From NCBI GenBank assembly GCA_963847575.1, contig CAWKAL010000072.1, positions 1-60,943 of the forward strand: a stretch of 60,943 nt of DNA. Direction: 5' to 3'. Shown here piece by piece: positions 396 to 58,793 of this stretch (its first letter is position 1; the number at the start of each line of letters is the position of its first letter). A program made the translations under genes and the position numbers. The DNA comes from an uncultured Gammaproteobacteria bacterium (lineage in GTDB: Bacteria; Pseudomonadota; Gammaproteobacteria; SZUA-229). The notes under the pieces were generated by a model. It did not search any database. It saw only the letters and a list, made by a program, of their open reading frames with translations, and was not told the DNA's origin.

Positions 396-414
396 AATAT
401 TCAGAAACTAATTT

Positions 415-519
415 GCCGCAAAGTACGCAAATGACGCGAATGTAAAACAGATACTATTTACGTAATTTGTTACGGATGCTTTCATATTACTAATTTGCGT
501 CTTTCGCGTTTTTCGCGGC
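415..519. repeat. GCCGC-arm inverted repeat cassette, copy 1 (no gene)
   Basis: Left arm 415-441 gccgcaaagtacgcaaatgacgcgaat; right arm 493-519 reverse-complements to gccgcgaaaaacgcgaaagacgcaaat (21/27). Confidence 0.85.
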
Positions 520-526
520 CAGTTTT

Positions 527-1807: not shown

Positions 1808-1863
1808 CAGTCTGCAATCTCCATGCATTGAACACACATAAATCACGAATTAAAAAAATCTTT

Positions 1864-2000
1864 GCCGCAAATGAACGCAAATGAACGCAAATATCTTTAT
1901 CAGTACGGCAAACTACATGATGATCAGTAACATGCTTTAAAGCCCGAGCATAACTACCAGCAAATTTTTTACATTCGCGTTCATTTGCGTTCATTGGCGG
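1864..2000. repeat. GCCGC-arm inverted repeat cassette, copy 2 (no gene)
   Basis: Left 1864-1892 gccgcaaatgaacgcaaatgaacgcaaat; right 1973-2000 rc ccgccaatgaacgcaaatgaacgcgaat (26/28). Confidence 0.9.
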
Positions 2001-2008
2001 ACTCATCT

Positions 2009-2515: not shown

Positions 2516-3769
2516 TTACCTGTCGACTTCGCCGAACACGATGTCCTGGGTACCAATAATCGCCACCACGTCGGCCAGCATGTGGCCTTTTGACATTTCA
2601 TCCATCGCTGACAAATGCGCAAATCCCGGCGCGCGGATTTTCAGTCGATAGGGTTTGTTGGCACCGTCAGAAATAATGTAGGTACCGAACTCTCCCTTGG
2701 GGTGTTCGATAGCGGCATAGGCTTCGCCCGCGGGCAAACAGAAACCTTCGGTGAACAGTTTAAAATGATGGATCAGCGATTCCATGTCGGCTTTCATGGT
2801 TTCACGATCGGGCGGGGTAATCTTATGGTCTTCAAGAATGACCGGGCCCGGGTTTTCGCGCAGCCAGTCGATGCATTGTTTAATAATGCGATTCGACTGG
2901 CGCATTTCTTCCATGCGGCACAGATAGCGGTCATAACAGTCGCCGTTGGTGCCGACAGGAATATCAAAATCCATCCGATCATACACTTCATAGGGCTGCT
3001 TCTTGCGCAAATCCCATTCCACGCCTGAACCGCGCAACATCGGCCCGGTGAATCCCAGCTCCATGGCACGTTCCGGTGTGACGATACCGATATCGACCGT
3101 ACGCTGTTTCCAGATGCGGTTATCGGTCAGCAGGGTTTCGTATTCATCGACATAGGCCGGGAAGCGTACAGTGAAATCTTCAAGGAAATCGAGCAGCGAG
3201 CCCTGGCGGTTTTCATTGAGTTTGCGCACTTCGCGTTCGTTATGCCATTTCGACGCCTTGTAATGCGGCATGCTGTCGGGCAGATCGCGCGCGACACCAC
3301 CGGGGCGGTAATAGGTTGCATGCAATCGTGCACCGGAAACCGCTTCGTAGCAGTCCATTAAATCTTCGCGTTCGCGGAAAGCATAGAGGAACATGGTCAT
3401 GGCGCCGACATCGAGTGCGTGCGCGCCTATCCACAACAGGTGGTTAAGAATTCGCGTGACTTCATCGAACATCACACGAATGTACTGCGCGCGCTCCGGG
3501 CATTCGACACCAAGCAGTTTTTCGATGGCCAGCACATAACCGTGCTCATTACACATCATCGATACATAATCGAGCCGGTCCATGTAACCGATGCTCTGGT
3601 TATAGGGTTTGCTTTCGGCAAGTTTTTCAGTCGCGCGGTGCAACAGGCCGATATGCGGGTCGGCACGTTGAATCACTTCACCGTCCATTTCCAGCACCAG
3701 GCGCAATACCCCGTGTGCAGCCGGATGTTGCGGGCCAAAGTTGAGCGTGTAATTACGAATTTCAGGCAT
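2516..3769 (-). CDS. nuoD: NADH-quinone oxidoreductase subunit D
   Basis: [17 protein letters not shown]-terminal GEVDR; start trimmed to MPEIRNY. Confidence 0.97.
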
Positions 3770-4493
3770 TGCTGTTTTCCTGCTCGCTCTGACCGGGTTC
3801 TGCGGCCTGCGCTTTGTCATCGCGAATCACCCGCGGCACCAGCACGCGTGGTTCGATCGTCACCGGCTGGTAGATCACGCGTTTCTGTTCCGGGTCATAG
3901 CGCATTTCGACGTGACCAATCAGCGGGAAGTCCTTGCGGAAAGGATGACCGACAAAACCATAGTCGGTGAGAATACGGCGCAGATCCGGGTGGCCTTCGA
4001 AAAGAATACCGAACAGGTCGAAAGCTTCGCGCTCGTACCAGTTGGCAGATGCCCACAATGAAATCACCGAGGGCACCACCGGCACGGCATCGTTCTCGCA
4101 ATAACAACGCACGCGCAGGCGCTGGTTGTTACGGATGGACAACAAATGGTAAACCGCGGCGTAACGCTGACGATCATTGTTTTTATAAGACGGTACATCA
4201 CCAAAGCGCATGCGCGCGTTTACGCCCGGGGTAACGCCACGACTGAAACCTGTACTGGTTGACGATGTCGTAGTCCACTCCGCACTACCGTACTCGGAAT
4301 AATCCACACCGCAGACGTCAATCAATTGTTCGAAACCAAATGCAGTGTCGTCGCGCAGCTGCTGGCACACGGCTATCAGCTCGGTGGCTGACACTTCAAT
4401 CGTGACTTCACCTGCCGCAACCACGTTCGATACCAGGCGAGCACCAAATGCGCGCTGGAGGGCTTCAGAGAGTTGCTGAACTTTGCTCGACAT
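3762..4493 (-). CDS. nuoC: NADH-quinone oxidoreductase subunit C (unfused from NuoD)
   Basis: [37 protein letters not shown]. Confidence 0.96.
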
Positions 4494-4505
4494 AATGATT
4501 CCTTT

Positions 4506-4982
4506 CTAACGAGCGATGGTATTGGTGCGGCGGATTTTGTTCTGCAACTGGATAATTCCGTAGAGCAGCGCTTCCGCTGTCGGCGGGCAACCGGGGACGT
4601 ATATATCGACCGGCACGATACGGTCACAACCGCGCACCACCGAATAGGAATAATGATAATAGCCGCCGCCGTTGGCGCATGAGCCCATGGAAATCACCCA
4701 GCGCGGTTCCGCCATCTGGTCATAGACCTTGCGCAGTGCAGGCGCCATCTTGTTGCACAGGGTGCCGGCAACAATCATCACGTCGGACTGGCGCGGTGAC
4801 GGCCGGAAAATAATACCGAAACGGTCGAGGTCATAACGCGAAGCACCTGCCTGCATCATTTCCACCGCACAACAGGCAAGACCAAAGGTCATCGGCCACA
4901 GCGAACCGGTGCGCGCCCAGTTGATCAGCTTGTCGGCTGAAGTGGTAACAAAGCCTTTTTCGAGTACGCCTTCTATTCCCAT
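4506..4982 (-). CDS. nuoB: NADH-quinone oxidoreductase subunit B
   Basis: [23 protein letters not shown]; start trimmed to MGIEG. Confidence 0.97.
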
Positions 4983-5332
4983 TCCAGCGCTCCTTTTTTC
5001 CACTCGTATATAAAGCCGATCACCAGGATGCCGAGGAACACGGCCATGGCAAGAATACCGAACATGCCGATCTCGTCGAGCACGATGGCCCAGGGAAACA
5101 GGAAAGCAATTTCCAGATCGAATACGATGAACAGGATGGCAACGAGGTAATAACGCACATCGAATTTCATGCGCGAATCTTCAAATGCCTCGAAGCCACA
5201 TTCGAAAGGAGAATTCTTGGCGGCGTCAGGGCGATGCGGCGCCAGCAGGAAACCGCCCATAAACATGGCAATGACACCCACGCCCACGCCGATGGCGAGA
5301 AAAATCAGAATTGGCAAATAATTTTCGAGCAT
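4973..5332 (-). CDS. nuoA: NADH-quinone oxidoreductase subunit A
   Basis: [29 protein letters not shown]. Confidence 0.97.
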
Positions 5333-5458
5333 TTTAACTCCGCATAGGCCCGGTACATTGCCGGCCCTGTTCGTTATGTTGCTCCGCCCTGGAGACGTCC
5401 TCTGGACTTTTTCCCTTTTAGCGTCGACTTATCACCGACGTATTATCGTCTTGTTATA

Positions 5459-5543
5459 TGGTGCCGACGGCCGGACTCGAACCGGCACAGCTTTCGCCAC
5501 TACCCCCTCAAGATAGCGTGTCTACCAATTTCACCACGTCGGC
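5459..5543 (-). tRNA. tRNA-Leu (GAG)
   Basis: GCCGACGTGGTGAAATTGGTAGACACG...CTATC-TTGAGGG-GGTAG...GGTTCGAGTCC...CACCA; 85 nt with long variable arm; standard position after secG. Confidence 0.95.
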
Positions 5544-5563
5544 TATTGATCTAACAGTGATCG

Positions 5564-5956
5564 TTACTCTGCAGCCGGTGGTGGTATAGCACTGTCGGCT
5601 TCGGCAGGAAGCTCGGCGGGTTGAGGCACATTGTCCTCGACCGCATTAAACAGGGGTGCTTCTACTGCCGGAGTATCACTTTGTAACTGAATTTGCTCAA
5701 TGCTATCAATAACGCTGGTAGGCATATCGCGGTTAGCCGCCAGGTAAGCGAGCGCGAGGCTGTTGAGGAAAAAACCGGTGGCAAGGATTGCCGTGGTTTT
5801 GCTCAGAAAATTCGACGAGCCGCTGGCACCGAATACCGAGGTTGCACCGCCGCCAAATGTTGCGCCTTCACTCGCGCCTTTGCCTTTTTGCAGCAGTACC
5901 AGGGTAATGATACCGAACGCAAGACATACATGAAGTACCAGCAGAATTATATCCAC
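5564..5956 (-). CDS. secG: Preprotein translocase subunit SecG
   Basis: VLLQKGKGA..GATFGGGA.SVFGASGSSNFLSKTT; tpiA-secG-tRNA-Leu synteny. Confidence 0.95.
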   Translation of the reverse strand: MDIILLVLHVCLAFGIITLVLLQKGKGASEGATFGGGATSVFGASGSSNFLSKTTAILATGFFLNSLALAYLAANRDMPTSVIDSIEQIQLQSDTPAVEAPLFNAVEDNVPQPAELPAEADSAIPPPAAE

Positions 5957-5961
5957 TTAAA

Positions 5962-6711
5962 TTAACCGCCCGCTTTACAAATTGTTAAAAAATCTTCAGC
6001 CTTGAGTGAAGCGCCGCCGATCAGACCGCCATCGATGTCCGCCTGGCCGATGAGCTCAGCCGCGTTGGCGGGGTTCATGCTGCCACCGTAGAGGATGCGC
6101 AGGCCTGCCGCTATGTCCTCATCCAGTTTAGCAATCTTGTTGCGAATGAATGCGTGTACTTCCTGCGCCTGTTCGGGCGAAGCTGTCTTGCCGGTACCAA
6201 TCGCCCAGACCGGCTCGTAGGCCAGCACTGCGTTGGCCAGCGAGCCCACACCTTCGGCGTACAGTAAGGCGTCCAGCTGGCGCGCGATGACTTTCTCGGT
6301 GACGCCGGATTCGCGCTCTTCCAGGGTTTCGCCGATACAGAAAATCGGTTTCAGACCGTGCTTTAATACTGCGCTGTATTTGATCGCGGTAACAGCGTCA
6401 GTTTCACCGTACAGGCTGCGACGCTCGGAATGGCCGATAATGACATATTCGACACCAAAGTCTTTCAGCATGGGGCCGGCAACTTCACCGGTAAATGCGC
6501 CTGAATCCTGGTCGCACATGTTCTGCGCACCCAGCTTGATGCCAGAACCGGCAATGGCGTCGGCAACGCCGGGGATGAATACATAGGTGGGACAGACGAC
6601 AACTTCGGCTTTTACGCCGGCAGCACCTGCCTTGATTCCCTCAATGAGCTGTTTGACGCTTTCCCTGGATCCGTTCATCTTCCAGTTGCCAGCTACCATC
6701 ACCTGCCGCAT
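5962..6711 (-). CDS. tpiA: Triosephosphate isomerase
   Basis: AGNWKMNG, IIGHSERR, AYEPVWAIGTG, GGLIGGASL. Confidence 0.98.
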   Translation of the reverse strand: MRQVMVAGNWKMNGSRESVKQLIEGIKAGAAGVKAEVVVCPTYVFIPGVADAIAGSGIKLGAQNMCDQDSGAFTGEVAGPMLKDFGVEYVIIGHSERRSLYGETDAVTAIKYSAVLKHGLKPIFCIGETLEERESGVTEKVIARQLDALLYAEGVGSLANAVLAYEPVWAIGTGKTASPEQAQEVHAFIRNKIAKLDEDIAAGLRILYGGSMNPANAAELIGQADIDGGLIGGASLKAEDFLTICKAGG

Positions 6712-6886
6712 TACGCACTCCACCTGATTCTAAAGGGGGGCAAGGATACCTGTCGGCACTGAATAAATCAATGACGCGAATGGGTATATATGCCCGCCAC
6801 CGTCGCCAAAATTGATGTGAAGGGCCTCAGATAAACAAAGACTTAGTTTATTGGCGCGCAGCGCCGGCAGGCAAAGACGGGCAGAC

Positions 6887-8221
6887 TTACAAGGCGGCCT
6901 GAACTGAAGTGGCGATAGATTGCGTAAGTTCGTTGACCTGGGCCTCGTTTTCACCTTCCACCATCACCCGCACCAGCGGCTCGGTGCCGGAGGGGCGCAA
7001 CAGCACGCGGCCACTGCCATTGAGGACTTTTTCGGCATTTTTCACTGCCGCTTTGACCGCGCTTGAGTTCAGCGGATCGCCCTGCCCGCTGAGTTTCACA
7101 TTGATCATGCACTGCGGCAGCTTGTGCATGCTGCCAAGCGCGTCGCTGAGCGACTGCCCGGTTTCAGCCAGGTGCTCCAGCACCTGCAAGGCCGACACGA
7201 TGCCGTCACCCGTGGTGGTACGATCAAGACAGATGATATGCCCGGAGGATTCACCACCGAAGCTCCATTGTCTTTGATTGAGCGCTTCCAGCACGTAACG
7301 GTCGCCGACGGCCGCGCGTACAAACTCCAGCCCCATGCGCCGGATCGCCAGCTCCAGCCCCATGTTGCTCATCTGCGTGCCCACCACGCCGCCAGGCTGG
7401 GCACCGCTGCGCACCCGCGAACAGGTAATGATGTAGAGCAGCTCGTCGCCATCGACAATATTACCGCTGGCATCGACCATCACCACGCGATCGCCATCAC
7501 CGTCGAACGCGATACCAAGGTCGGCTTTTTCAGCCAGTACTTTTTCACGCAGCGCACGTGGTGAGGTCGAGCCGATATCGGCATTGATATTGAGGCCATC
7601 GGGCTCGTCACCGATGGTAATCACCTCGGCACCCAGCTCGATAAACACGCTGGGCGCGATGTGATAGGTCGCGCCGTTGGCGCAATCGAGCACTATTTTC
7701 ATGCCGGTGAAACGCGTGCCGATTGGAATACTCGCCTTGCAGGCTTCGATATAGCGGCCATAGGCATCGGCCACGCGCTGGGCCTTGCCGAGTTGCGCCG
7801 AATCAACGGTGGTCATGGGCGATTCGAACATGTCTTCGATGCGGTGTTCGATATCATCTGGCAGCTTGGTGCCCTGCGCCGAGAAAAACTTGAGCCCGTT
7901 ATCGTAGTAAGGATTGTGCGAGGCACTGATCACTATGCCTGCCGATGCGCGCAGCGTGCGCGTGAGATAGGCAATGCCCGGCGTCGGCATCGGCCCGAGC
8001 AGGCGCACATTGACACCGGCCGCTGACAGGCCCGCTTCCAGCGCGGATTCGAACATATACCCGGAAATGCGCGTGTCCTTGCCTATCACGACCAGGCGTT
8101 CACCCTGGCTGGCAAGTACACGGCCAACGGCCCAGCCGAGCTTGAGTACCTGGTCGGCCGTCATCATGCCTTCACCGACACGCCCACGAATACCATCGGT
8201 TCCAAAATATTTACGCGCCAT
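6887..8221 (-). CDS. glmM: Phosphoglucosamine mutase
   Basis: [36 protein letters not shown]. Confidence 0.97.
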
Positions 8222-8270
8222 TATCAATTCACTTCTGTTCTGAGGTTTCTGTTTATCGTATTCACTTTTC

Positions 8271-8301
8271 CCCGGATGCGGTAGAACTGCATCCGGGCTA
8301 C
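8271..8301 (-). repeat. GTAG-family REP-like palindrome
   Basis: Minus strand GTAG-CCCGGATGC-AGTTCTACC-GCATCCGGG: GTAG tetranucleotide followed by a 9-bp perfect stem. Confidence 0.6.
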
Positions 8302-8304
8302 ATT

Positions 8305-8346
8305 CTATTCACTATTCACTATTCACTATTCATTATTCATTGCTTT
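8305..8346 (-). repeat. 7-bp tandem array (TGAATAG)n overlapping the folP stop
   Basis: Plus strand (CTATTCA)x4 at 8305-8332 then TTATTCA; minus strand reads AAGCAATGAATAATGAATAGTGAATAG... Confidence 0.9.
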
Positions 8347-9168
8347 TCTAACTGCGTCGCACAGCTTTAATGCATCAACCGTTTCCGTGACATCGTGCAC
8401 CCGGAAAAACCGCACGCCCTTGATGCACGCGATCACTGCTGCGGTCACACTACCGATGACTCGGTCATTGACCGGCCGTTCCAGTAACTCGCCCAGCATG
8501 CTCTTGCGTGAAATACCCACCAGTACCGGAAAGTCTAGACCACAAAATGCGTCGATGTTGGCCAGCATTTGCAGATTATGTTCGAGGCTTTTGCCAAAAC
8601 CGAAACCCGGGTCGAGAATAATATGCTGTTCGGATATCCCGCGCTCGACACAGGCCTGGGCACGTTCGCGCAAAAACTTGCGCACCTCGGCCACCACGTT
8701 CTGATACTCCGGCCTGTGCTGCATGGTACGCGGCTCGCCCTGCATGTGCATCAGGCATACCGGCACATTCAGCTCGGCACAGGCTTCCACGGCACCGGGC
8801 GCACGCAGGGCATAAACATCATTGATCAAATTGGCGCCGGCGGCGACAGCGGCGCGCATCACTTCGGGCTTGCTGGTATCGATCGAAACGGGCACATCAC
8901 TGTGCTGGCGAATCGCCTCGATCACAGGTACCACCCGGTGGATTTCTTCATCTGCAGTCACCGGCTCGGCGCCGGGACGGGTGGACTCACCACCGACATC
9001 GATCATATCGGCACCCTGGAGTTCCATTTCACGCGCACGCTCGAGCGCGATTTCCACGCCGCTGAACTGTCCGCCATCCGAGAACGAATCCGGCGTGACA
9101 TTGAGCACCCCCAGAATCACCGGCCGATGCGAGCGCAACAGCTCCAGGGTTTTATCAACACTGCTCAT
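8326..9168 (-). CDS. folP: Dihydropteroate synthase
   Basis: GVLNVTPDSFSDGG, GGESTRPGA, DPGFGFGK, SRKS, RVHDV. Confidence 0.97.
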   Translation of the reverse strand: MSSVDKTLELLRSHRPVILGVLNVTPDSFSDGGQFSGVEIALERAREMELQGADMIDVGGESTRPGAEPVTADEEIHRVVPVIEAIRQHSDVPVSIDTSKPEVMRAAVAAGANLINDVYALRAPGAVEACAELNVPVCLMHMQGEPRTMQHRPEYQNVVAEVRKFLRERAQACVERGISEQHIILDPGFGFGKSLEHNLQMLANIDAFCGLDFPVLVGISRKSMLGELLERPVNDRVIGSVTAAVIACIKGVRFFRVHDVTETVDALKLCDAVRKAMNNE

Positions 9169-9203
9169 TAAATATCACTACCCATGTATCTGTAAGGTAT
9201 CAA

Positions 9204-9228
9204 TAAAAAAGGGAGCCAAGCTCCCTTT
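9204..9228 (-). terminator. Rho-independent terminator downstream of ftsH
   Basis: Minus strand AAAGGGAGC-TTG-GCTCCCTTTTTT. Confidence 0.75.
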
Positions 9229-9269
9229 AATATCTTTTCACACCCGGCAAAAACATTCGAGCCCGGCAT

Positions 9270-9312
9270 TTCATTTTTCATTATTCACTATTCATTATTA
9301 ATTGCTCAATGA
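9270..9312 (-). repeat. Degenerate 7-bp tandem array at the 3' end of ftsH
   Basis: Plus strand ttcattt ttcatta ttcacta ttcatta ttaattg; minus strand GCAATTAATAATGAATAGTGAATAATG, a few nt after the ftsH stop. Confidence 0.75.
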
Positions 9313-11250
9313 TCAGTGCTGATTTGCCGTGCCACCAATTGAGCCTTTATGTTTATCGGCTTTTTCACCGATGTCTGCACTGGCACCACCACTTGGGCCA
9401 GTCGGCGGCTCTGGCGTGTCGTGCCAGTCTCTCGGTGGCGGCGGCTCGCGGCGTTCCATCAGCGCGTCAATCATGGCCACGTCAATGGTTTCATATTTGA
9501 TCAGTGCTTCCGCCATGTTATTGAGTATATCGAGATTATCGCTCAGCATTTTGTGCGCGCGTTCGTAATTACGGTCGATGAAAGTGCGCACTTCTTCGTC
9601 GATAATGCGCGCGGTATCGTCACCCATGTTCTTGTGCTTGGTCACCGAGCGACCGAGGAACACTTCGCCTTCGTCCTCGATATAGGTCAGCGGGCCGAGA
9701 CGTTCTGACAGGCCCCACTTGGTCACCATGTTGCGCGCAATTTCGGTGGCGCGCTCGATATCATTCGAAGCGCCGGTGGTCACGCTGTCAGCACCAAAAA
9801 TCAGCTCTTCGGCAATACGCCCGCCGAACAGGCTGGAGATCATGCTTTCGAGATGTTTCTTGCTGTGGCTGTAGCGGTCGGCTTCGGGCAGGAACATGGT
9901 AATACCCAGCGCGCGGCCACGCGGAATAATGCTGACCTTGTAGACCGGATCATGTTCCGGCACCAGTCGACCGACAATCGCATGACCGGCTTCGTGGTAA
10001 GCCGTGAGTTTTTTCTCGTCTTCCGACATCACCATGGAGCGACGCTCGGTGCCCATCATGATCTTGTCCTTGGCGCGTTCGAAATGGCGCATCTCGACCT
10101 GCTTGCAGTTTTCGCGCGCGGCAAACAACGCGGCTTCGTTCACCAGGTTGGCCAGATCGGCACCGGAGAAACCGGGTGTGCCACGGGCAATAATCGCCGG
10201 ATTGACATCACGTGCTTCCGGCACCTTGCGGATATGGACTTTCAGAATCTGTTCGCGACCACGGATGTCGGGCAGCGGCACCACCACCTGGCGGTCGAAA
10301 CGACCGGGGCGCAGCAGCGCCGGATCGAGCACATCGGGACGGTTGGTGGCAGCAATGACAATCACGCCTTCGTTGCCTTCGAAACCATCCATTTCGACCA
10401 GCAACTGGTTGAGGGTCTGCTCGCGCTCGTCGTGACCACCGCCGAGACCGGCACCGCGATGACGACCGACAGCATCGATTTCGTCGATGAAGATAATACA
10501 GGGCGCGTGTTTTTTCGCCGTCTCGAACATGTCACGTACGCGCGAGGCACCGACGCCGACAAACATTTCAACAAAGTCGGAACCTGAAATAGTGAAGAAC
10601 GGCACCTTGGCTTCACCGGCGATGGCACGTGCCAGCAGGGTTTTACCGGTACCCGGCGAACCCACCATGAGCACGCCCTTGGGAATCTTGCCGCCCAGTT
10701 TCTGGAATCGGCCCGGGTCGCGCAGAAATTCGACCAGCTCGGAAACTTCTTCCTTGGCCTCGTCTGCACCGGCAACATCATTGAATGTGACCTTGATCTG
10801 GTCTTCACCCAGCATGCGCGCCTTGCTCTTGCCGAACGACATGGCGCCACGGCCACCCGCACCGCCCTGCATCTGGCGCATGAAGAATATCCAGATGCCT
10901 ATCAGCAGCAGGAACGGAAACCATGAAATAAATATGGTCATCAGCAAAGACTGGCTTTCCGGCGGCATCGCCTTGATTTCAACACCGTTGCTGAGCAGGT
11001 CACCCACCATGGCGCTATTGTTGGTTTCGGGGCTGTAGGTGCTGAACGGCGTACCGTTGGACAATCGGCCCTTGATATCACGGCCATCGATCACAACTTC
11101 GCTGACCTGTGACTGTTTCACCATATCAATGAACGCGGAATACGCGACCATCTGTGGGCTGGTGCCGGTTTTGCTGAAATTACTGAAAACTGACAGCAGT
11201 ACTACCGCTATGACAGCCCACAGGATGAGATTCTTGGCCAGATCGTTCAA
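9313..11250 (-). CDS. ftsH: ATP-dependent zinc metalloprotease FtsH
   Basis: Two TM segments, GSPGTGKT Walker [14 protein letters not shown] zinc motif. Confidence 0.98.
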
Positions 11251-11315
11251 GTTAGCGCTCCGAATGTATCCGCGAATAAATAACGAATATTAGATGTTGT
11301 TAAACTTACTATAGT

Positions 11316-11954
11316 TCACTGCCTGTTGCCAGCAAAGCCCGTGGCGACTGCATATATTTCTCGGCTGCGGTTTCGCGAAGCTTTAGGCTTGCGCATCACC
11401 ACCCTGGCAAAATTCTGCTTCAGGCTTTTATTGTAGGCCTCGAAGCCTTCACCCTGAAACAGCTTGACCAGCAGCCCTCCACCGGGTTTGAGCACCTGCC
11501 TGGCAAGTTCCAGCGCCAGTTCGGCGAGATAATACGCACGCGGCATGTCCACCACGCCCATGCCACTTATATTGGGTGCCATGTCCGAAATTACAAGGTC
11601 GGCGCGATCATCACCCATGAGTTTCATCAATTGCGTATAAACACTTTCTTCGCGGAAATCACCCTCGATGATTTCCACACCTTCGATGGGTTCCATCGGC
11701 AAAATATCCAGCGCGATAATACGGCCCTTTCCCCCCAGCTGGGTCAGCACGTATTCCGACCAGCCACCCGGCGCGGCGCCGAGATCGATCACCGTCATGC
11801 CCGGTTTGAGCAGCCGGTCCTTTTGCTGGATTTCGATCAGTTTGTAAATCGCGCGCGAACGATAACCGTCCTGCTGCGAGCGCAACACGTACTCGTCTTC
11901 GAAGTGTTCCTTGAGCCACTGCCTGCTGGATTTACTCCTGCCCTTCTTACTCAT
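11316..11954 (-). CDS. rlmE: 23S rRNA Um2552 methyltransferase RlmE
   Basis: [32 protein letters not shown]; rlmE-ftsH synteny. Confidence 0.96.
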
Positions 11955-12012
11955 GTTCCGCTCACTCGTGCTATAGTTCGCCGCCGTTCAGCTTTACACC
12001 GTGGGTGTTCAG

Positions 12013-12309
12013 ATGTCACTTACAAAAAACCAGATTAAACATTTACGCGGATTGTGTCACGCCCTGCACCCGATCGTCATGCTCGGTCAAAAAGGCCTGA
12101 GCCAGGAAGTACTGGATGAACTGGAAATTGCACTCAATCACCACGAACTGGTAAAAATTAAAGTCGCCGTGGATGACCGCGACATGCGTCGGCAAGTCAT
12201 CGAATCGCTGTGTGATACCAGCCAGTCAGAAATCGTGCAGTCAATCGGCAAAACCGTTTGCGTGTTTCGCCGCAACACCAAAAATCCCGTGGTTGAATTG
12301 CCAAAGTAA
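12013..12309 (+). CDS. yhbY: Ribosome assembly RNA-binding protein YhbY (CRM domain)
   Basis: HLRGLCHALHPIVMLGQKGL, HELVKIK, VQSIGK; divergent from rlmE. Confidence 0.93.
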   Translation: MSLTKNQIKHLRGLCHALHPIVMLGQKGLSQEVLDELEIALNHHELVKIKVAVDDRDMRRQVIESLCDTSQSEIVQSIGKTVCVFRRNTKNPVVELPK

Positions 12310-12318
12310 ATAATAAAT

Positions 12319-12527
12319 AGCCGCGAATGAACGCGAATGAACGCAAATTAAATAATTTATCTAACGAATCTTCAGATCTGAAGACGCTGAGGTTAACCAT
12401 AATTGCTGCTCCCATACGAACAGAAAAATGAAAACTGCGTCGTATCCAGCATTTCTAACCAGACAGCAGCATCTGGTTTCACATATATAATTTTTTAATT
12501 CGCGTTCATTCGCGTTCATTTGCGGCT
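12319..12527. repeat. GCCGC-arm inverted repeat cassette, copy 3 (no gene)
   Basis: Left 12319-12352 agccgcgaatgaacgcgaatgaacgcaaattaaa; right 12494-12527 matches 32/34 as reverse complement. Confidence 0.92.
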
Positions 12528-12534
12528 GAATTTT

Positions 12535-13011
12535 TTATATGTATTTCACTTCGACGATTTCGAATGAACGCACACCGCCCGGAGTTTGCACATCTACCAC
12601 ATCACCTTCCACTTTGCCGATGAATGCGCGCGCTATCGGTGAGCTGTAGGAAATCTTGTTGGCCTTGATATCGGCCTCGTCTTCACCGACGATTTGGTAG
12701 GTCAGTTCATCGCCGGTTTCTTCGTCGGCCACATCCACGGTAGCGCCGAACACCACCTTGCCGTCAGCCGCCAGGCTGGTGACATCGATAATGGTGGCGT
12801 TGCCGAGTTTGCCTTCGATGTCCTTGATACGGCCTTCGATAAAACCCTGCTGTTCACGCGCGGCGTGATACTCGGCGTTTTCTTTTAAATCACCGTGTGC
12901 ACGTGCTTCTGCAATTGCTTCGATCACGCGCGGACGATCCACGGATTTCAGCTGCTGCAGTTCCTGCTGAAGTTTTTCTGCACCCTGTACAGTAATAGGC
13001 ACCTTGCTCAT
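12535..13011 (-). CDS. greA: Transcription elongation factor GreA
   Basis: [26 protein letters not shown]; follows carB. Confidence 0.97.
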
Positions 13012-16000
13012 GCTGCGACCTCTTTCTTGATTGCCGCGTGCAGGTCCTGCAAACGGGTAACCGCGTTCTGTTCCAGATAATCCAGCGCATTGCAGGTTGC
13101 ACGCGCGCCGGCAATCGTGGTGGTGTAGCTTACCTTATGCTGCAGTGCCGATGCGCGAATCGTGTATGAATCGGCGATGGCCTTTTTGCCTTCAGTGGTA
13201 TTGATAATCAGTTTAATTTCTTCGTTCTTGATCATGTCAACAATATGCGGCCGGCCTTCATATACCTTGTTGACCAGCGCGCATTCGATGCCCGCTTCTT
13301 TCAACGCCCTGCCGGTACCCCGCGTGGCTATCAGCTTGAAGCCATGTTCAGCCAGGCTGCGGCCGAGTTCAACAGCATACTTGCGATCACGTTCACGCAC
13401 ACTGATAAAAACATTGCCCGCGGTCGGCAACACCACGCCGGCACCGAGTTGCGCTTTTGCAAACGCCATGCCGAAGGAACTGCCCACGCCCATGACTTCG
13501 CCGGTGGATTTCATTTCCGGCCCCAGCAGGGGATCGACTCCGGGGAATTTCACAAACGGGAACACCGATTCTTTCACTGCGTAAGTCGACGGAATCACTT
13601 CGCGGGTGACACCCTGCGATGCGAGACTGCGCCCGGCCATACAACGTGCAGCAATTTTTGCCAGCGGTAGCCCGGTGGCTTTTGACACGAACGGCACCGT
13701 GCGCGATGCGCGCGGATTCACTTCGAGCAAATAAATATTGTCGCCCTGTATCGCAAACTGGATATTCATCAAACCCACGACGCCGAGTTTGAGTGCGAGC
13801 TGGCGGGTTTGTTCACGCAACTCGTCCTGAATTTTTTTAGACAGCGAATACGGCGGCAATGAACATGCCGAATCACCGGAATGCACACCGGCCTGCTCGA
13901 TATGTTCCATGATGCTGCCGATGAGCACGTCTTTGCCATCACAGATCGCATCGACATCGACTTCAACGGCATCATCCAGGAAACGATCGAGCAATACCGG
14001 GGCGTCGTTCGACACACTGACCGCGGTGCGCATGTAATGTTTCAGATCGGTTTCATCGTAGACAATTTCCATGGCGCGGCCACCGAGCACATACGACGGG
14101 CGCACCACCAGCGGGTAACCGATTTCGGCCGCGCGCGAGACCGCTTCGTCAGCCGAACGTGCGAGCCGGTTTGGTGGCTGTTTCAAACCGAGTTCTTCGA
14201 CCAGTTGCTGGAAACGCTCGCGGTCTTCGGCCAGGTCGATACAGTCGGGCGTGGTACCAATAATGGGTGCGCCGGCGGCTTCGAGTGCGCGCGCAAGCTT
14301 CAACGGGGTCTGGCCACCGTACTGCACGATGACGCCTTTGGGTTTTTCCACTTCGAGCACTTCGAGCACGTCTTCGAGCGTGAGCGGTTCGAAATACAGC
14401 CGGTCGGAAGTATCGTAATCGGTCGACACGGTTTCGGGATTGCAGTTGATCATGATGGTTTCATAACCATCTTCACGCATCGCCAGCACTGCATGCACGC
14501 AGCAATAGTCAAATTCGATGCCCTGGCCGATACGGTTCGGCCCGCCACCGAGCACGACAATTTTGTCACGCGTAGACGGCAGCGCTTCGCATTCTTCCTC
14601 GTAGGTCGAATACATGTAGGCGGTCGAGGTGGAAAATTCTGCGGCGCAGGTATCGACGCGCTTGAATACCGGCGTGACCCCGAGCTGGTGGCGGCGCTGG
14701 TACACCGCGTTCATTTTTGTGCCGAGTAATAGTGCCAGCCTGCTGTCGGAAAAACCCTTGCGCTTGAGTATTCTGAGTTCGTCGGCGTCCACCTGTTCCA
14801 GCGTTTTGCCGACCAGGCCCTGCTCAAGCGTGATCAGTTCTTCGATCTGGACCAGGAACCACGGATCGATTTTACTCAGTTCGAACATGCGCTCGCGGCT
14901 ATAACCGCGGCGGAAAGCATCGCCGACATAACGCAGGCGGTCTGCGCCGGCGAGACTGATTTCCTGGTTGAGTCTGGCTTCGGCCTCGTCATCCGATAAA
15001 CCTTCTTCCAGCACCGGCGTCAGGCCGTCGATATCGACTTCGAGTCCGCGCAGGGCTTTTTGCAATGATTCCTGGAAGGTACGGCCAATCGCCATGACTT
15101 CACCGACAGATTTCATCTGCGTAGTCAGACGGTTTTCAGCCTGCGGGAATTTTTCAAAGGTGAAGCGCGGGATCTTGGTGACGACGTAATCTATCGTCGG
15201 TTCGAACGATGCCGGGGTGGCGCCACCGGTAATATCATTTTGCAATTCATCCAGGGTGAAGCCCACCGCCAGCTTGGCGGCGACCTTGGCGATCGGGAAA
15301 CCGGTCGCTTTCGACGCCAGCGCGGATGAACGCGACACCCGCGGGTTCATTTCGATAATGGTCATGCGGCCATCATCGGGGCAGACCGAGAACTGTACGT
15401 TGGAACCGCCGGTGTCGACACCGATTTTGCGCAGCACTGCAATCGAGGCATCGCGCATGCGCTGGTATTCCTTGTCGGTGAGGGTTTGCGCCGGCGCCAC
15501 GGTAATCGAATCACCGGTGTGAATGCCCATCGGGTCAAGGTTTTCGATCGAGCAGATAATGATGCAGTTGTCCTTGTTATCGCGCACCACTTCCATTTCG
15601 TATTCTTTCCAGCCGAGCACGGACTCTTCCACCAGCAGTTCATTCACCGGCGACATATCCAGGCCGCGGCGGCAGATTTCTTCGAACTCGTCACGGTTGT
15701 AGGCGATGCCGCCACCGCTGCCGCCCATGGTGAACGATGGCCGGATGATAGTGGGATAACCGACCATGGCCTGCACCTGGTAGGCTTCTTCCATGCTGTG
15801 CGCGATGGCTGCGCGCGGCATGTCGAGGCCGATGTCTTCCATCGCGATCTTGAATTTTTCGCGGTCCTCGGCCATGTCGATGGCTTCCTTTCTGGCGCCG
15901 ATCATTTCGACGCCGAATTTTTCCAGCACACCTTCACGATCGAGATCAAGCGCACAGTTGAGCGCAGTCTGTCCACCCATGGTGGGCAGCAGGGCGTCAG

Positions 16001-16247
16001 GTTTTTCCAGCTCGATTATTTTTGCCACGGTCTGCCAGGTAATCGGCTCGATATAGGTAGCGTCGGCCATCTCCGGGTCGGTCATGATGGTCGCCGGGTT
16101 CGAGTTGACCAGGATAACGCGGAAGCCTTCCTCGCGCAGCGCCTTGCAGGCCTGTGCACCAGAATAATCAAACTCGCAGGCCTGGCCGATCACAATCGGG
16201 CCGGCGCCGATGATCAGGATGCTGTGTATGTCGGTTCTTTTAGGCAT
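13008..16247 (-). CDS. carB: Carbamoyl-phosphate synthase large subunit
   Basis: [17 protein letters not shown], two ATP-grasp halves, 1079 aa. Confidence 0.99.
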
Positions 16248-16296
16248 ATTCTAGGTATCACTTGCGCACTATTGCACGTCCAGATAAAGAACCTTT

Positions 16297-16772
16297 GCCG
16301 CAAAATACGCAAAGGACGCAAAATTAAATGTTATCTTTTTCACTGTATTCCCAGACTATTCGTTTTATACCCAATGGTGCCATTCCAAAATTTAGTAACA
16401 GCGCCACGCTTAGACCACTTGCACGAAGATAATTAATTACTTGCGCTTTATGGTTGGCGTTAAATGATGGAACTGCCTTTAATTCAACTATTAATTTATC
16501 CTCGATAACAATATCCGCTTGATATTGACCAATGAGTTTTCGCTTATAGAAAACATCAAGCGGCTGTTGTCTGGAAAAAGAAATACCATTTTGTTCCAGT
16601 TCGTATGCAAGTGCATTTTCGTACACGGCCTCAAGAAATCCAGGGCCAAGTTCACGACTCACATTTTGAGCACACCCAATAACCATTTCAGATATCCTTT
16701 TTCTGATTCGCATCCTTCATCCCTATTAACAATTACTTCGCTTTTTTTTGCGTCCTTTGCGATATTCGCGGC
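16297..16772 (-). mobile_element. Putative element: GxxExxY gene bounded by GCCGC-arm inverted repeats (copy 4, gene-containing)
   Basis: Left arm 16297-16323 gccgcaaaatacgcaaaggacgcaaaa; right arm 16746-16772 rc gccgcgaatatcgcaaaggacgcaaaa (23/27); mobility is inferred. Confidence 0.65.
16324..16713 (-). CDS. GxxExxY family protein (PD-(D/E)xK nuclease-like fold)
   Basis: 129 aa; LGPGFLEAVY (GxxExxY), ADIVIEDKLIVELKA (D...ExK), QVINYL, LLLNFG; AT-richer than flanking car genes. Confidence 0.92.
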   Translation of the reverse strand: MRIRKRISEMVIGCAQNVSRELGPGFLEAVYENALAYELEQNGISFSRQQPLDVFYKRKLIGQYQADIVIEDKLIVELKAVPSFNANHKAQVINYLRASGLSVALLLNFGMAPLGIKRIVWEYSEKDNI

Positions 16773-17909
16773 TATTTTTTTACCATCATTTCAATGAACC
16801 GGTCAAAGATCGGGGCGATGTCGTGCGGGCCCGGGCTGGCTTCGGGGTGGCCCTGGAAACTGAATGCCGGGGTGTCGGTGCGCGCTATTCCCTGCAGCGA
16901 ACCATCGAACAATGAGCGGTGGGTTGCGCACAGGTTGGCCGGCAGCGTGGATTCGTCGACCGCGAAGCCGTGGTTCTGGCTGGTGATCATCACCTGCCCG
17001 GTGGTTAGATCCTGTACCGGGTGGTTGGCACCGTGATGACCGAATTTCATTTTCAGGGTTTTGGCGCCGCAGGCCAGTGCCAGCAGCTGGTGGCCCAGGC
17101 AAATACCGAATACCGGGAGTCGGGTTTGCAAAATCTGGCGGATGGCCTCGATCGCGTAATCACAGGGCTCGGGATCGCCGGGGCCGTTCGACAGGAAGAT
17201 ACCGTCGGGCTTCATCGCCAGTACGTCGGCCGCGGGGGTTTTCGCCGGCACCACCGAAACCCGGCAGCCGCGCGACGCCAGCATGCGCAGGATGTTGCGC
17301 TTGACGCCGTAATCGTAGGCCACGACGTGGTAGTGCACATCGCTGGCGGCAATGGCATTGGCCGCGTTGGTGTCGAGGTTCCATTCACCGTCGCGCCACG
17401 GGTAGGCTTGCTGACGCGCTCACCACCTGGGCCAGGTCGAGGCCCTTGAGGCCGCCGAACGCCGTGGCCTTGTTCAGCGCGGCAGCTTCGTCACAGTCAC
17501 CCGCCATGATGCAGCCATTCATCGCGCCCTTGTCGCGCAATAATCGTGTCAGCCGGCGGGTGTCGATTTCTGCAATGGCGACCACGTTTTCGGATTGCAG
17601 GTATTCCTGCAGGCTCTGCTGGCCGCGCCAGTTGCTCATCAGCATCGCGGCATCACGCACCACCAGCCCGGCAGCGTGTACACGGTCGGCTTCGCAGTCA
17701 CCGTCATTGCAGCCGACATTGCCGATATGCGGATACGTCAGGGTGACAATCTGGGACGAATAGGACGGGTCAGTGAGAATTTCCTGGTAACCGGTCATCG
17801 CGGTGTTGAACACGACTTCGCCGACGGTTTCACCGCTTACCCCGATCGAAAGGCCTCTGAAGACACTGCCGTCTTCGAGAACCAGGACGGCGGGCTGCGT
17901 TGTGTTCAC
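16772..17909 (-). CDS. carA: Carbamoyl-phosphate synthase small subunit (single frameshift near 17415)
   Basis: N-half [21 protein letters not shown] and C-half [26 protein letters not shown] lie in different frames. Confidence 0.95.
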
Positions 17910-18013
17910 GGGGTTTGCTCCATGCTGATTTGTTTATGGGCAAAAAAAACGGGAGCATCGATGGTAATTTCACCATCGAAGCTCCCGTTTTTACATAATG
18001 AACACGTGTTCAT
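17906..18013 (-). promoter_or_regulatory. Candidate carA leader peptide plus attenuator hairpin
   Basis: 35-codon [38 protein letters not shown] reads through the hairpin ACGGGAGCTTCGATGGT-GAAATT-ACCATCGATGCTCCCGT followed by a T8 run (17942-17992); its TGA overlaps the carA GTG. Confidence 0.6.
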
Positions 18014-18108
18014 ATAAGCGTCGTTCTCAACCTCTGCGCGGCATTACACCACACGACTGCGGACATGAAAAAGGCCGGAACGGTAGCGTAGCTCCAGCCT
18101 TGAATTAG

Positions 18109-18184
<76 letters not shown>

Positions 18185-18309
18185 GCAGCGATACAACGGG
18201 CATCGTCACCCCTGTCACATCGGGCGGGAAGTCTACGTGGATGAGGATTTGTCGTCAATAGCACCAGTGGCTAAAGTCACTGAAATATACCGATAATTTC
18301 GGCCTTCTC

Positions 18310-19740
18310 TCAGTAGGCGTTGCGGTGAATAAGACCTCTGAACACGGTCATCACAATAATTTTAATATCCAGCCATAACGACCAGTTTTCAATGTAATAC
18401 AGGTCATGCTCGATGCGCGTATGCAGGCAGGTATTGCCGCGCCAGCCGTGTACCTGCGCCCAGCCGGTGAGGCCGGCCTTGACCAGGTGCTTCTTGTTGT
18501 AATGCGGAATTTCGTTTTTGTATTTTTCGACGAACACCGGGCGCTCGGGCCGCGGGCCGATCAGCGACATCTCGCCCAGCAGCACGTTAAACAGCTGCGG
18601 CAGTTCATCCATGCTGGTGTTGCGTAAAAAAGTGCCGAAGGGCGTCGCGCGCTTTTCACCTTTTTGCGCCCACACCGGCCCGGTCTGGTTTTCGACATCG
18701 ACCGGCATGGTGCGGAACTTGAACATGGTGAATTCCTGGCCGTTCCAGCCGACACGCCGCTGGCGGTAGAGTACTGGCCCGGGTGAGCTCAGCTTCACGC
18801 CAATGGCGATCAGCAGCATCAGCGGGCTGGCGAACACCAGCAATACGAAGGCAAGTACATAGTCTTCAATCATCTTCAGAAACCGGTTGGCGCCGTCGAT
18901 GGCCGAGTACGAAATATTCACCACCGGGATACCTGCCATTTCAGTCAGTGAGTGATGCATCAACTGGTATTCGAAAATATCCGGCACATAGCGAATTTCA
19001 ACCGCCGAACCATCCAGCGCACCGATCACCCGACGGATGGTTTCTTCTTCGCTGTGGGGCAATGAGATCCAGACCTGGTCGACCTGCATGTCATCGACAT
19101 GCTGACGCAAGGTGGCAAAATCGTCGATGATTTTTGTACCGCTAAGCCACGCGGGTAATAACTGGTCACTCGATCTAAACATGGCCGAAATCTCGAGTCC
19201 GAACCAGGTGGATTTGCGCAGCCTGTCAGCCACCACCACTGCCTGCTCGCCGGTACCCACGATGACGATATGGCGGTGATTGAAACCACTGCTGCGCAGC
19301 CAGCGCAGCACCAGGCGCAAGATAACGCGCGAACCGACCAGCGCTATCCAGCCACTGGCGAACCAGATGCCCATCCATGATCTCGAATAGTCAGCGCCGG
19401 TCCTGGTCATGAAGGCCAGAATTGCCAGGGTGAGCGCAACCATGGTCCACGCCATGGTTAAATGTTTAATTTCCGTGAGCGTAGACGCACCTCGCCAGAC
19501 ACGATACACAGAAAATAGAGGGAATATTAGTCCGACAAGTAATACCGCAAGCAGCAATACTTTGATGTAATGATCTGGAATACCCTCTACGCCTAAGGCT
19601 GTGTAGAACTCATAGGCATTCGAGCTATAAAAAGCCAGCAGGCCACAAAATGCAATCGCCAGCAAATCACTGAACCTTAGAACCAGATTGAGGATATTCG
19701 CGTGGCCTTTCAGGAAGCCTTTAAAATACATACCAGTCAA
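18310..19740 (-). CDS. Undecaprenyl-phosphate glucose/hexose-1-phosphate transferase (WcaJ/WbaP family)
   Basis: N-terminal TM segments, CoA-binding-like middle region, KFRTM, DELPQLFNVLLGEMSLIGPRPE, GLTGWAQV, DLYYIENWS. Confidence 0.92.
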   Translation of the reverse strand: MTGMYFKGFLKGHANILNLVLRFSDLLAIAFCGLLAFYSSNAYEFYTALGVEGIPDHYIKVLLLAVLLVGLIFPLFSVYRVWRGASTLTEIKHLTMAWTMVALTLAILAFMTRTGADYSRSWMGIWFASGWIALVGSRVILRLVLRWLRSSGFNHRHIVIVGTGEQAVVVADRLRKSTWFGLEISAMFRSSDQLLPAWLSGTKIIDDFATLRQHVDDMQVDQVWISLPHSEEETIRRVIGALDGSAVEIRYVPDIFEYQLMHHSLTEMAGIPVVNISYSAIDGANRFLKMIEDYVLAFVLLVFASPLMLLIAIGVKLSSPGPVLYRQRRVGWNGQEFTMFKFRTMPVDVENQTGPVWAQKGEKRATPFGTFLRNTSMDELPQLFNVLLGEMSLIGPRPERPVFVEKYKNEIPHYNKKHLVKAGLTGWAQVHGWRGNTCLHTRIEHDLYYIENWSLWLDIKIIVMTVFRGLIHRNAY

Positions 19741-19779
19741 TTTTCCGTTTTATACGGCGATTATAGTCAAGCGTTTTTA

Positions 19780-20701
19780 TTATTTAAAATATCGTGGGTT
19801 CATGCTGATTTTTCTTTTTAAATACAGAGGGATATATCGCTCTGCCAGCCCCAGTCTAAAGCCCGTGTAGCGCATAACATTTCTGAGCAGGATTTCAGGC
19901 AATCTCCAGAAAGCATGCTGTACCAGATAGTTTAGCTCCGAAATCACGAATCGGGAGCCTGCACCTTCTGCACTTCCAAAGGTCTCTCGTATCCACGGCT
20001 CGCGGGCATGAAACACCCCCATATCAAAGTAGCGCTTCATTTCCTGAACCAGGGAATAATCATGCGAATGATACACTCTTGCATCGGCAGCGTAAGCAAT
20101 TTTATGACCTGCGAGTAACAACCTGGCCGCTGCATACATGTCCTCACCAAAAATCACATCTTTCGGGAACCCTCCCACGCTCAAAAAGGCATCGCGACGA
20201 TAGGCCGCAAATGAATTCGACAGGAAAGCGGTTTTTATACCCAGGCTTTCAGCATCCTTGATTGATCTGATATTCGATGTGTCCGGATAACTATAAAACC
20301 TGGCATGCGCTTCAACTGGATCTGCTTTTTCACGCGGCAGCTGCCTGCCACATACAGCGGCCACATCGGCATCATCAAACGCAGACAACAATAGACTTAA
20401 CGCATGGCGATCATATAAAACCGCATCCTGTGTAAGAAATATTATGTAGTCGAATCCCGCGTTATCATCAACAGCTCGTTGACGTGTGCCGCCGTGACTG
20501 AATTGCGCCCTGTCAATGACTTTCACCCTGAAGCCTGATTTTTTCGCTATTTCAACTGAACCATCATCAGAGGCCGAGTCAATTATCAACGCTGCCGCAG
20601 GCTTGTCCTGCTGACTGTTATATGCCCTGAGCCAATCCTCGAAGCATATCGCCGGGATTAAGCGTGGGACAAACGAGTAATGTCCGCTCTAGTCTTGACA
20701 T
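19780..20701 (-). CDS. GT2 rhamnosyltransferase-like (RfbN/WbaN-like); N-terminal frameshift
   Basis: CPTLNPG / IIDSASDDGS, FSHGGTRQ, FLTQDA, GRQLPR, FGEDM, VYHSHDY. Confidence 0.8.
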
Positions 20702-47011: not shown

Positions 47012-47151
47012 GCCGCGAATTACGCAAAGAACGCAATTTAAAGTCAGATTTTTTCCTGACAAGTAAGCTACCAGCTAACTATGCGGCGTATTTTTCATTT
47101 CCGTAATCAGAACTACAATTCTTAATTTGCGTTCTTTGCGTAATTCGCGGC
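47012..47151. repeat. GCCGC-arm inverted repeat cassette, copy 5 (no gene)
   Basis: Left 47012-47041 gccgcgaattacgcaaagaacgcaatttaa; right 47122-47151 rc gccgcgaattacgcaaagaacgcaaattaa (29/30). Confidence 0.92.
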
Positions 47152-58695: not shown

Positions 58696-58713
58696 GCCGC
58701 AAATAACGCAAAT
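58696..58713 (+). repeat. Lone partial GCCGC arm
   Basis: gccgcaaataacgcaaat: two CGCAAA units at 9-nt spacing; no partner arm seen. Confidence 0.5.
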
Positions 58714-58793
58714 GTTTTATTGAAGTAATCCAGAAAACATTAGCATGCTTCAGGCAGCCCCCACGGATAAAGCCAGTATAAACCCGCGGGCTC

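Follow-up and report, generated by a model that had tools for sequence, protein, structure and literature searches.

REP-associated tyrosine transposases (RAYTs), which are Y1 HUH enzymes, have their counterpart in the REP doublets called REPINs. In pairs of insertion sequences (IS) and the miniature transposable elements with inverted repeats known as MITEs, of which the Correia elements are an example, terminal inverted repeats are common to gene-bearing and to short gene-less units. Homing endonuclease genes, free-standing or intron-borne, include ones of the PD-(D/E)xK type, and the intervening sequences (IVS) of 23S rRNA can carry a small open reading frame (ORF) of the PF05635 family. 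Here we analyse a stretch of 60,943 nucleotides from an uncultured gammaproteobacterium (contig CAWKAL010000072.1 of assembly GCA_963847575.1; the whole stretch is called the window), in which a small gene of the GxxExxY family, placed between carA and carB, is enclosed by inverted arms made of short phased repeats. The best explanation of our data is that this gene-bearing unit is a member of a pan-prokaryotic family of compact elements; the association of the gene with the arrays is general, strong, and imperfect in both directions.

The RAYT/REPIN partnership is treated in PMC3116915, PMC3337134 and bioRxiv 10.1101/2021.07.10.451892. Paired arrays of short repeats were described in one Geobacter genome by Aklujkar et al. 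2009 (PMC2700814), where class 2 comprises 21 paired sites, each with three tandem copies of TCTCCGTS[Y] and with the partners on opposite strands, a variable distance apart; octa- and heptanucleotide arrays, likewise paired, make up classes 1 and 3, and one pair lies between proB and proA. The text of that paper interprets them as binding sites of an unidentified global regulator, possibly IHF/HU.

The element from which our enquiry starts is 476 bp long and has the following parts.

16297..16772, minus strand: whole gene-bearing element in the carA-carB intercistronic spacer, made of 5' arm, GxxExxY ORF and 3' arm
16324..16713, minus strand: GxxExxY / PDDEXK_3 gene of 129 aa, with D67, E77 and K79 intact
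16746..16772, minus strand: upstream (5') arm in gene orientation, with units CGCGAAT / CGCAAAG / CGCAAAA at a 9-nt period
16297..16323, minus strand: downstream (3') arm, adjoining the TAA stop of the gene (16324-16326)

An earlier note on this DNA had described a 129-aa GxxExxY gene within 27-bp inverted arms, its stop codon abutting the left arm and the right arm starting on the last base of the carA stop, and this description holds. The protein belongs to PF13366/TIGR04256, the arms are 27 nt each and complementary at 23/27 positions (85%) with 422 nt between them, and the right arm overlaps the carA TAG by one base (16772). Both neighbours, carB (13008..16247) and carA (16772..17909), are on the same strand as the gene. 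No sigma-70-like promoter was seen inside the element, and a scan of the window with Rfam returned three tRNAs only and no match on the element. The predicted RNA fold of the whole element pairs its arms, with a minimum free energy of -137.1 against a shuffle mean of -110.8 (z -5.0).

The arm pattern is not a peculiarity of this spacer. In the window CGCRAA-N4-CGCRAA matches 7 times (0.13 expected) and CGCRAA-N3-CGCRAA 13 times (0.22 expected), which makes 20 matches against about 0.35, and none of 100 shuffles reached either count. Eighteen of the 20 matches sit in five inward-facing pairs, namely the gene-bearing element and four gene-less pairs, each of which the earlier note had located correctly.

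415..519, no strand assigned: gene-less arm pair, interior about 53 nt, fold z -3.2
1864..2000, no strand assigned: gene-less arm pair, 10-nt period, interior about 82 nt, fold z -6.5
12319..12527, no strand assigned: gene-less arm pair, 10-nt period, interior about 151 nt, fold z -7.8
47012..47151, no strand assigned: gene-less arm pair, 9-nt period, arms of the subfamily to which those of the gene belong, fold z -9.5
58696..58715, plus strand: solo arm of two units, partner not found

The two unpaired matches are at 3221, inside a coding sequence, and at 58698.

In the genome from which the window comes, a 2.70-Mb draft in 138 contigs that is 81% complete, the strict pattern finds 175 arms and 73 inward-facing pairs. 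Compared side by side, the arms turn out to repeat a 7-nt unit 2-5 times in tandem, with a period of 8-10 nt, and a short cap (GCC or ACC, for example) precedes the array on the outer side. The tripartite CGC(A/G)AA arm of the earlier note is therefore right for the three units found here and too narrow in general, where the unit is C-R-C-R-R-A-K and is itself non-palindromic. This generic pattern yields 318 arrays in the genome against 18 in a reversed-sequence control; the two patterns merged give 337 arms and at least 109 inward pairs. Within 4 substitutions of the left arm of the gene there are 44 arms in the genome, and none when the arm is reversed, and the gene-less elements form dispersed families that can be aligned over their full length. 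Pair interiors measure 16-203 nt except in the gene-bearing element and in a composite one on contig C118 (2841-3272), whose 364-nt interior holds other GC-rich nested palindromic repeats and no ORF of note. No other gene was found between arrays in this genome, the C118 interior being the only other one above 220 nt.

The window genome has one strong PF13366 gene; a weak PF13366-like ORF of 153 aa on contig C120, which has no arrays and looks unrelated, was set aside. Among 61 genomes sampled from the same bacterial family 38 possess the gene, and at 39 of 45 distinct PF13366 loci of the family it is flanked by an inverted repeat (score at least 15), always built of CRCRRAK units. A wider scan, with one genome per species and an alignment of 10 clade-2 sequences (see below) as query, gave 80 loci, 53-68% identical, in Acidobacteriota, Chloroflexota, Planctomycetota, Verrucomicrobiota, Desulfobacterota, Bacteroidota, Methanothrix, Methanosarcinales and others. 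Flanking repeats were present at 50/80 of these loci and at 0/80 shuffled controls (control maximum 10.5), and the arms are again arrays, for example ACC-ACAGAG-n-CACAGAG. The enrichment of GxxExxY genes between arms, on which the earlier note had staked its proposal, is thus seen both within the family and far outside it.

Within the family the protein falls into two clades, clade 2 being about 40% identical to clade 1. Clade 1, which includes the gene of the window, was always between carA and carB in the sampled genomes. Clade 2 occupies trpG/trpD, the junction of the RuBisCO large-subunit gene and cbbQ, that of a MoxR-like ATPase gene and its VWA partner, and a site after secF, and is co-directional with its neighbours except for the convergent SCO1 gene after secF. 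Arm type goes along with this division: 14 of 15 clade-1 loci with clear arrays on both sides have K=T and a 10-nt period, and in clade 2 K=G at 63/63 loci with clear arrays, the period being 8-9 at 60 of the 63. It is the protein clade, not the host, that the type of unit follows, and one genome (G001) holds both types, each beside the matching gene (L004, L020). The clade-2 ORF takes up the whole room between its arms; the purine-rich last unit stands where a ribosome-binding site would be expected, and the stop codon lies in or beside the other arm. A stricter rule, that the arm type of the resident gene is the array type of the genome at large, was not borne out one-to-one across genomes. 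Large expansions of the gene in other phyla, considered as a source of element boundaries, gave nothing of use, as the three genomes tried have 1-2 copies each.

The protein is a full-length member of its family. It matches the PF13366 PDDEXK_3 profile with E 1.2e-40 (139 bits, cut-off 22) and the TIGR04256 GxxExxY profile with E 1.3e-41 (141.6 bits, cut-off 35), and in 35 aligned family sequences the residues G25, E28 and Y31 of G-x-x-E-x-x-Y are invariant, as are D67, E77 and K79 of the D...E-L-K motif to which the earlier note had pointed. The family is large: 17,579 representative clusters reach E 1e-3 or better. Among the 150 top representatives about 30 (e.g. P0050-P0056) are 250-295 aa long with two GxxExxY stretches in tandem, and since such two-domain forms exist the protein probably acts as a dimer. 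Among the 35 members weak profile similarity was seen to Cas4 (12/35, best E 0.002), to DUF559 (7/35) and to T7 endonuclease I (3/35, best E 3e-4); PADLOC gave a weak Cas4 match only (E 7e-4), for one clade-2 member. A PHROG search with the protein returned no match, and a sequence search for solved homologues found none. The protein stands by itself; recurrent fusion partners were considered as functional hints and given up, for the 49 longer proteins carry assorted domains of neighbouring genes and are most likely read-through calls. In a 2012 survey of the superfamily, PDDEXK_3 figures among the families of unknown function, with multiple transfers.

Gene and arrays tend to occur in the same genomes. 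We counted arrays of three consecutive units, for which controls give 0-8 per genome. In the family sample at least 13 arrays are present in 37 of 38 genomes with the gene and in 4 of 23 without it; the sole exception among the former is G010, whose gene is broken and whose only arms are the two of that gene. Where the gene is lacking, 17 genomes have 9 arrays or fewer, two have 11-12, and four have many (G014 158, G067 87, G057 75, G016 43). Six genera hold both gene states, and the contrast runs in the expected direction in four of them and is about even in g6. A second sample covers 150 genomes of the class, one per family and each with a completeness of 90% or more. At least 10 arrays are present in 13 of the 20 that have a strong match to the gene and in 11 of the 130 that have none (the latter including the unpublished G182), an odds ratio of 20 with Fisher p 6e-8. 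In other phyla, genomes that possess the gene contain 54, 79, 302 and 63 arrays, where controls contain 0-1, and a Methanothrix bin has 3, all on one contig.

Several observations speak for movement of the gene-bearing unit. Thirty carA-carB loci comprise 19 filled ones (one of them broken), one remnant in which an arm pair surrounds the first 28 codons, two with arms only, and eight empty ones with spacers of 13-97 nt. Among relatives the protein is 48-81% identical, carB 90-96%, so the gene evolves much faster than its neighbour. Trees of the flanking carA/carB recover g1, the genus of the window, at 99; the approximately unbiased (AU) test rejects its monophyly for the gene (p 0.00135, the odd identities of the gene having been noticed before the test was made), and the gene tree splits g16 and g19 as well. 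This conflict of gene and host indicates that the carA-carB site has been re-invaded or exchanged between genera. In genome G019 a clade-2 unit of 490 bp with its gene is present in three copies (L021, L028, L031), 97-99.6% identical and sharply delimited at unrelated loci; a possible AT-rich flank duplication of 7-8 nt at two of the three is unconvincing. The inverted repeat of these copies extends about 40 nt beyond the CACAGAG array. In the complete genome G065 the arms of the gene copy equal those of at least 13 gene-less copies, and the element ends read GTCCAC...GTGGAC. The absence of target-site duplication, which the earlier note had remarked, is borne out at the five window elements and at 13 complete elements of G065. 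Gene-less elements were also considered as recent internal deletions of the gene-bearing unit, which we rejected since the two have only the arms in common in the window genome; the sole clear deletion derivative is L040 in the relative G051.

How the arms are read can be judged from the way in which they tolerate change. Left and right arms mismatch at 85 of 1631 unit positions (5.2%) and at 84 of 332 spacer positions (25.3%; p 2e-25), over the inverted-repeat loci that pass the unit filter; as a unit was recognised when its pattern stood on either arm, values at the fixed letters are biased downwards. The two C positions of the unit mismatch at 0.4%, its fourth position at 22.7%. A set of 23 carA-carB elements was kept out of these pair counts, the 9-nt and 10-nt arm types being misaligned in it. 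Mismatch in the units so far below that in the spacers favours sequence-specific recognition over mere pairing, and the conservation of unit and phasing, within elements and from proteobacteria to archaea, likewise argues for a sequence-specific reader. We infer that this reader may be the enclosed protein, the sole factor that always travels with the arrays. Two carA-carB elements, L089 (G046) and L061 (G018), have an extra insert that interrupts the arms. In L089 about 37 nt of insert are mirrored in both arms, giving an inverted repeat of 67 nt with 3 mismatches, and since the same insert stands in both, this suggests that one arm can template the other.

These figures bear on the idea that the element is a cassette at the RNA level, similar to an rRNA intervening sequence, with the stem cut in the transcript by RNase III or the like, the insert removed or insulated, and the ORF a selfish passenger; the earlier note had mentioned a variant of it. 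Predicted folds pair the arms in the five elements of the window (z -3.2 to -9.5), the upstream neighbour is co-directional at 55 of 75 diverse loci, no promoter-like site is seen, and genes of the 23S-rRNA-IVS protein family share the architecture, with heptamer arrays. There is also a mild excess of G.U-type transition mismatches on the sense strand, 90 versus 65; it is not significant (p 0.054), and 100 of the 255 mismatches are transversions. A stem requires no fixed sequence, yet the 7-nt unit is kept across phyla and it is the spacers inside the arms that mismatch at the high rate given above, and the origin of the copies would be left unexplained. Taken together, this makes the RNA cassette quite improbable to us.

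What we propose instead is a partnership of gene and arrays comparable to that of RAYTs and REPINs and built on a PD-(D/E)xK nuclease, to which, judging from sequence, we give an even chance; the evidence points to an undescribed DNA element, selfish or half-domesticated. The arrays would be the protein's own recognition sites, and the gene-less inverted pairs its non-autonomous partners using the same sites. The protein may bind the units and cut at or near the ends of the element, and the gene-bearing copy may spread between genomes in a homing-like manner with the conserved flanking genes as homology; its horizontal spread would be into the intercistronic spacers of conserved operons. Expression by read-through from carA would be likely, because a promoter-like site was not seen and the upstream neighbour is so often co-directional. 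In the transcript the arm-arm stem might limit the harm to the operon and mask the ribosome site of the gene, and where arms are kept for long at fixed sites the partnership may be tolerated by the host and perhaps be useful to it, for instance as 3'-end hairpins.

Other observations weigh against such a partnership, beginning with the counts themselves. Seven of the 20 class genomes with the gene have fewer than 10 arrays, and the 11 of 130 that reach 10 without it include apparently intact sets with no detectable gene (G083 95, G204 87, G165 79). G207 likewise has arrays and lacks the gene. In G083, reported as 100% complete, the gene was not found, and 13 of 16 arrays examined are in well-formed pairs. 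The interiors of these pairs are 27-255 nt, and about 12 further nt of inverted repeat stand outside the arrays (loci L269-L284). In genus g11 the contrast is reversed, with 158 arrays in G014 without the gene and 140 in G042 with it; there are few such contrasts within genera, and genomes that are kin do not count as independent samples. By the two specific types G054 has 5 and 5 and G076 11 and 6 arrays despite the gene, the generic three-unit pattern giving 61 and 38. The matching of types is loose as well: G003 has 130 CACAGAT-type matches and a gene of the 9-nt type, G054 and G076 carry the gene with 5-6 CACAGAT-type matches, and the window genome abounds in CACAGAG and CGCAGAG units and has no matching clade-2 gene, in an assembly that is incomplete, as noted. 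Finally, a lone hydrolytic nuclease is insufficient by itself to explain insertion at new sites, and that this nuclease moves the arms is a hypothesis.

Arrays without the gene, in several complete genomes, would be natural if the pairs were ordinary MITE-like elements moved by a host transposase and GxxExxY were captured cargo. The same explanation would account for gene-less families that share only their ends with the gene-bearing unit, and the window genome does have three matches to Y1 transposase (PF01797), as follows.

C45:80786-81109: Y1 transposase match, no CGCRAA arrays within 1.5 kb
C45:88653-88892: Y1 transposase match, no CGCRAA arrays within 1.5 kb
C3:18300-18626: Y1 transposase match, no CGCRAA arrays within 1.5 kb

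The distance of the arrays from these genes already tells against such a role, and so does the lack of a target duplication of the DDE type. The same gene family stands between the same kind of arrays in many phyla whose transposase repertoires differ, no other cargo gene was found in the window genome, and the clade-2 ORF exactly fills the space between the arms. We regard the captured passenger as quite unlikely.

The other adverse observations concern the age and the fixity of the gene-less sites. The earlier note had expected presence/absence polymorphism, which is plain at carA-carB; three gene-less sites of the window are occupied in all three comparable congeners. The sites orthologous to 415-519 and to 1864-2000 are occupied in G001, G002 and G004, the former by pairs with other arm types, and that of 12319-12527 holds CACAGAG-type pairs in G002 and G004. 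Where elements are clearly orthologous, the arms (located by strings common to both genomes) are identical at 103/103 positions and the interiors at 149/173. Gene-less copies look old, with 72-87% mutual identity in the window genome, and in G065 identity over the whole gene-less element does not exceed 80%, with arms nearly the same. Arms conserved at fixed sites while interiors drift look like constraint and not like recent hopping.

Such constraint is what would be expected if the arrays were host-level cis elements, i.e. selected hairpins at 3' ends and between cistrons (bidirectional terminators, mRNA stabilisers or protein sites), with GxxExxY as a trans factor whose own sites serve autoregulation. 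The genomic placement agrees with this: of the 109 pairs 49 lie between convergent genes, 46 between tandem and 1 between divergent ones, with 8 in called ORFs and 5 at contig edges, against a background of 401 convergent, 1640 tandem and 361 divergent among 2402 spaces, all by crude ORF calls. Distances to the neighbouring 3' gene end are 28 nt or less in 61/144 cases, in line with the earlier note, which had the elements lying just downstream of stop codons. The paired repeats of Geobacter metallireducens were, moreover, read as sites of a global regulator (PMC2700814). Against this, gene and arrays have gone together from phylum to phylum and between domains, at the protein identities of the wider scan; the gene-bearing unit multiplies, as in G019, and is horizontally replaced, as the AU test indicates; broken and lost copies are common; and many complete genomes of the class are without both gene and arrays, so the system is dispensable. 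We consider purely host-level elements unlikely. The autonomous/non-autonomous pair of the earlier note is partly supported: the link of gene and arms, the genome-wide gene-less family, the co-occurrence, the varied alleles at carA-carB and the position beside stop codons speak for it, and arrays without the gene and conserved arms at fixed sites do not. Of the outcomes named there as refuting it, neither of the two at the level of sequence, GxxExxY genes devoid of arms and arm pairs fixed with no presence/absence polymorphism, did refute it.

Two side observations concern assembly. The fragmented assembly of G003, the closest relative, breaks exactly at array elements when compared with window positions 1-20000, and its contig C2 begins right after the 12319-12527 element, so the repeats are a cause of contig ends in metagenome bins. 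In the window carA is split, near 17338-17385, into ORFs of 188 aa and 174 aa that use different frames, and in relatives it is a single open frame of about 380-400 aa; either a frameshift or an error in assembling the bin is responsible.

A second gene family shows a comparable layout. Genes of PF05635, annotated as 'four-helix-bundle / 23S rRNA IVS protein', are flanked by inverted heptamer arrays at 11 of 26 loci in the family and, in other families of the class, at 19/27 loci versus 0/27 shuffles (loci L185-L214 and L240-L268). As these genes, in the same genomes, have heptamer arrays, the array type goes with the enclosed gene family, and the layout looks like a sister architecture to the GxxExxY elements. 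The window itself has tandem heptamer arrays (TTCACTA and relatives) at 8300-8345 and 9263-9306, at operon junctions in the ftsH-folP region, and at 58786-58860, and contig C113 has a broken PF05635 remnant (17775-18012, with 3 TGA and 1 TAA inside) followed downstream by an (ATTATTC)4 array at 18062-18089. It would be tempting to generalise, and we do so tentatively, holding it for possible and still for rather doubtful. GxxExxY elements may be an unrecognised pan-prokaryotic class of mobile DNA in which a PD-(D/E)xK nuclease of about 125 aa, the element's sole protein, reads the phased arrays at both ends and inserts without target duplication, and which is accompanied by hundreds of non-autonomous pairs per genome; the four-helix-bundle '23S rRNA IVS protein' with its heptamers would be a sister class, and together the two might explain the paired hepta- and octanucleotide arrays and the ORF-bearing rRNA intervening sequences.

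For a family as large as GxxExxY/PDDEXK_3 the link to a motif array gives the first testable substrate. If the protein does act on the arrays, this would be a second independent invention of the RAYT/REPIN life-style, by a restriction-like nuclease, and the paired arrays of short repeats taken for regulator sites in earlier genome papers would have to be reinterpreted. In many phyla operon junctions and 3' ends are marked by the arrays, which matter for annotation (fused or split gene calls), for breaks in metagenome assembly and possibly for the biology of transcript 3' ends.

In comparison with what has been described, the likeness to the Geobacter repeats is close as far as consensus and layout go: the reverse complement of the class 2 consensus fits the CACGGAG unit found here, which falls within CRCRRAK, and our pairs have 2-5 units and interiors of 16-255 nt. 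The passages of PMC2700814 on these repeats do not connect them with mobility, with other phyla, or with any gene of the GxxExxY or four-helix-bundle kind, and we found no literature that connects a GxxExxY/PDDEXK_3 gene with repeats, a point on which the supplements of that paper may bear. Gene-less arrays were therefore already noted in 2009, and the link of gene and repeat and its spread across phyla are the new part. With 23S rRNA intervening sequences our element has in common a small ORF enclosed by inverted repeats, which pair into a stem in the transcript; there the protein family is another one and the heptamers are of varied sequence, and the element here is not in rRNA. Homing endonuclease genes resemble it in placing a nuclease ORF in a highly conserved context that is filled, degenerate or empty in relatives, and in the conflict of gene and host trees, but homing is not known to yield a hundred or so gene-less copies at other sites, nor are homing genes known to have short-motif arrays on both sides.

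With IS/MITE pairs the element has in common the terminal inverted repeats of gene-bearing and gene-less units, the intergenic position and the long transcript stems. It differs from them in having no target-site duplication and no DDE transposase, in ends that are tandem arrays, and in gene-less copies that keep perfect arms while their interiors decay. Shared with the RAYT/REPIN system are a low-copy gene flanked by repeats that are also found as tens to hundreds of gene-less intergenic inverted doublets, no target duplication, long persistence at fixed sites, and repeats that can outlive the gene. The differences are that the enclosed gene here is, by its profile, a PF13366 PD-(D/E)xK nuclease and not a Y1 HUH transposase, that the arms are phased arrays of a non-palindromic 7-mer and not a small hairpin, and that the gene has its place within operons and passes from one phylum to another.

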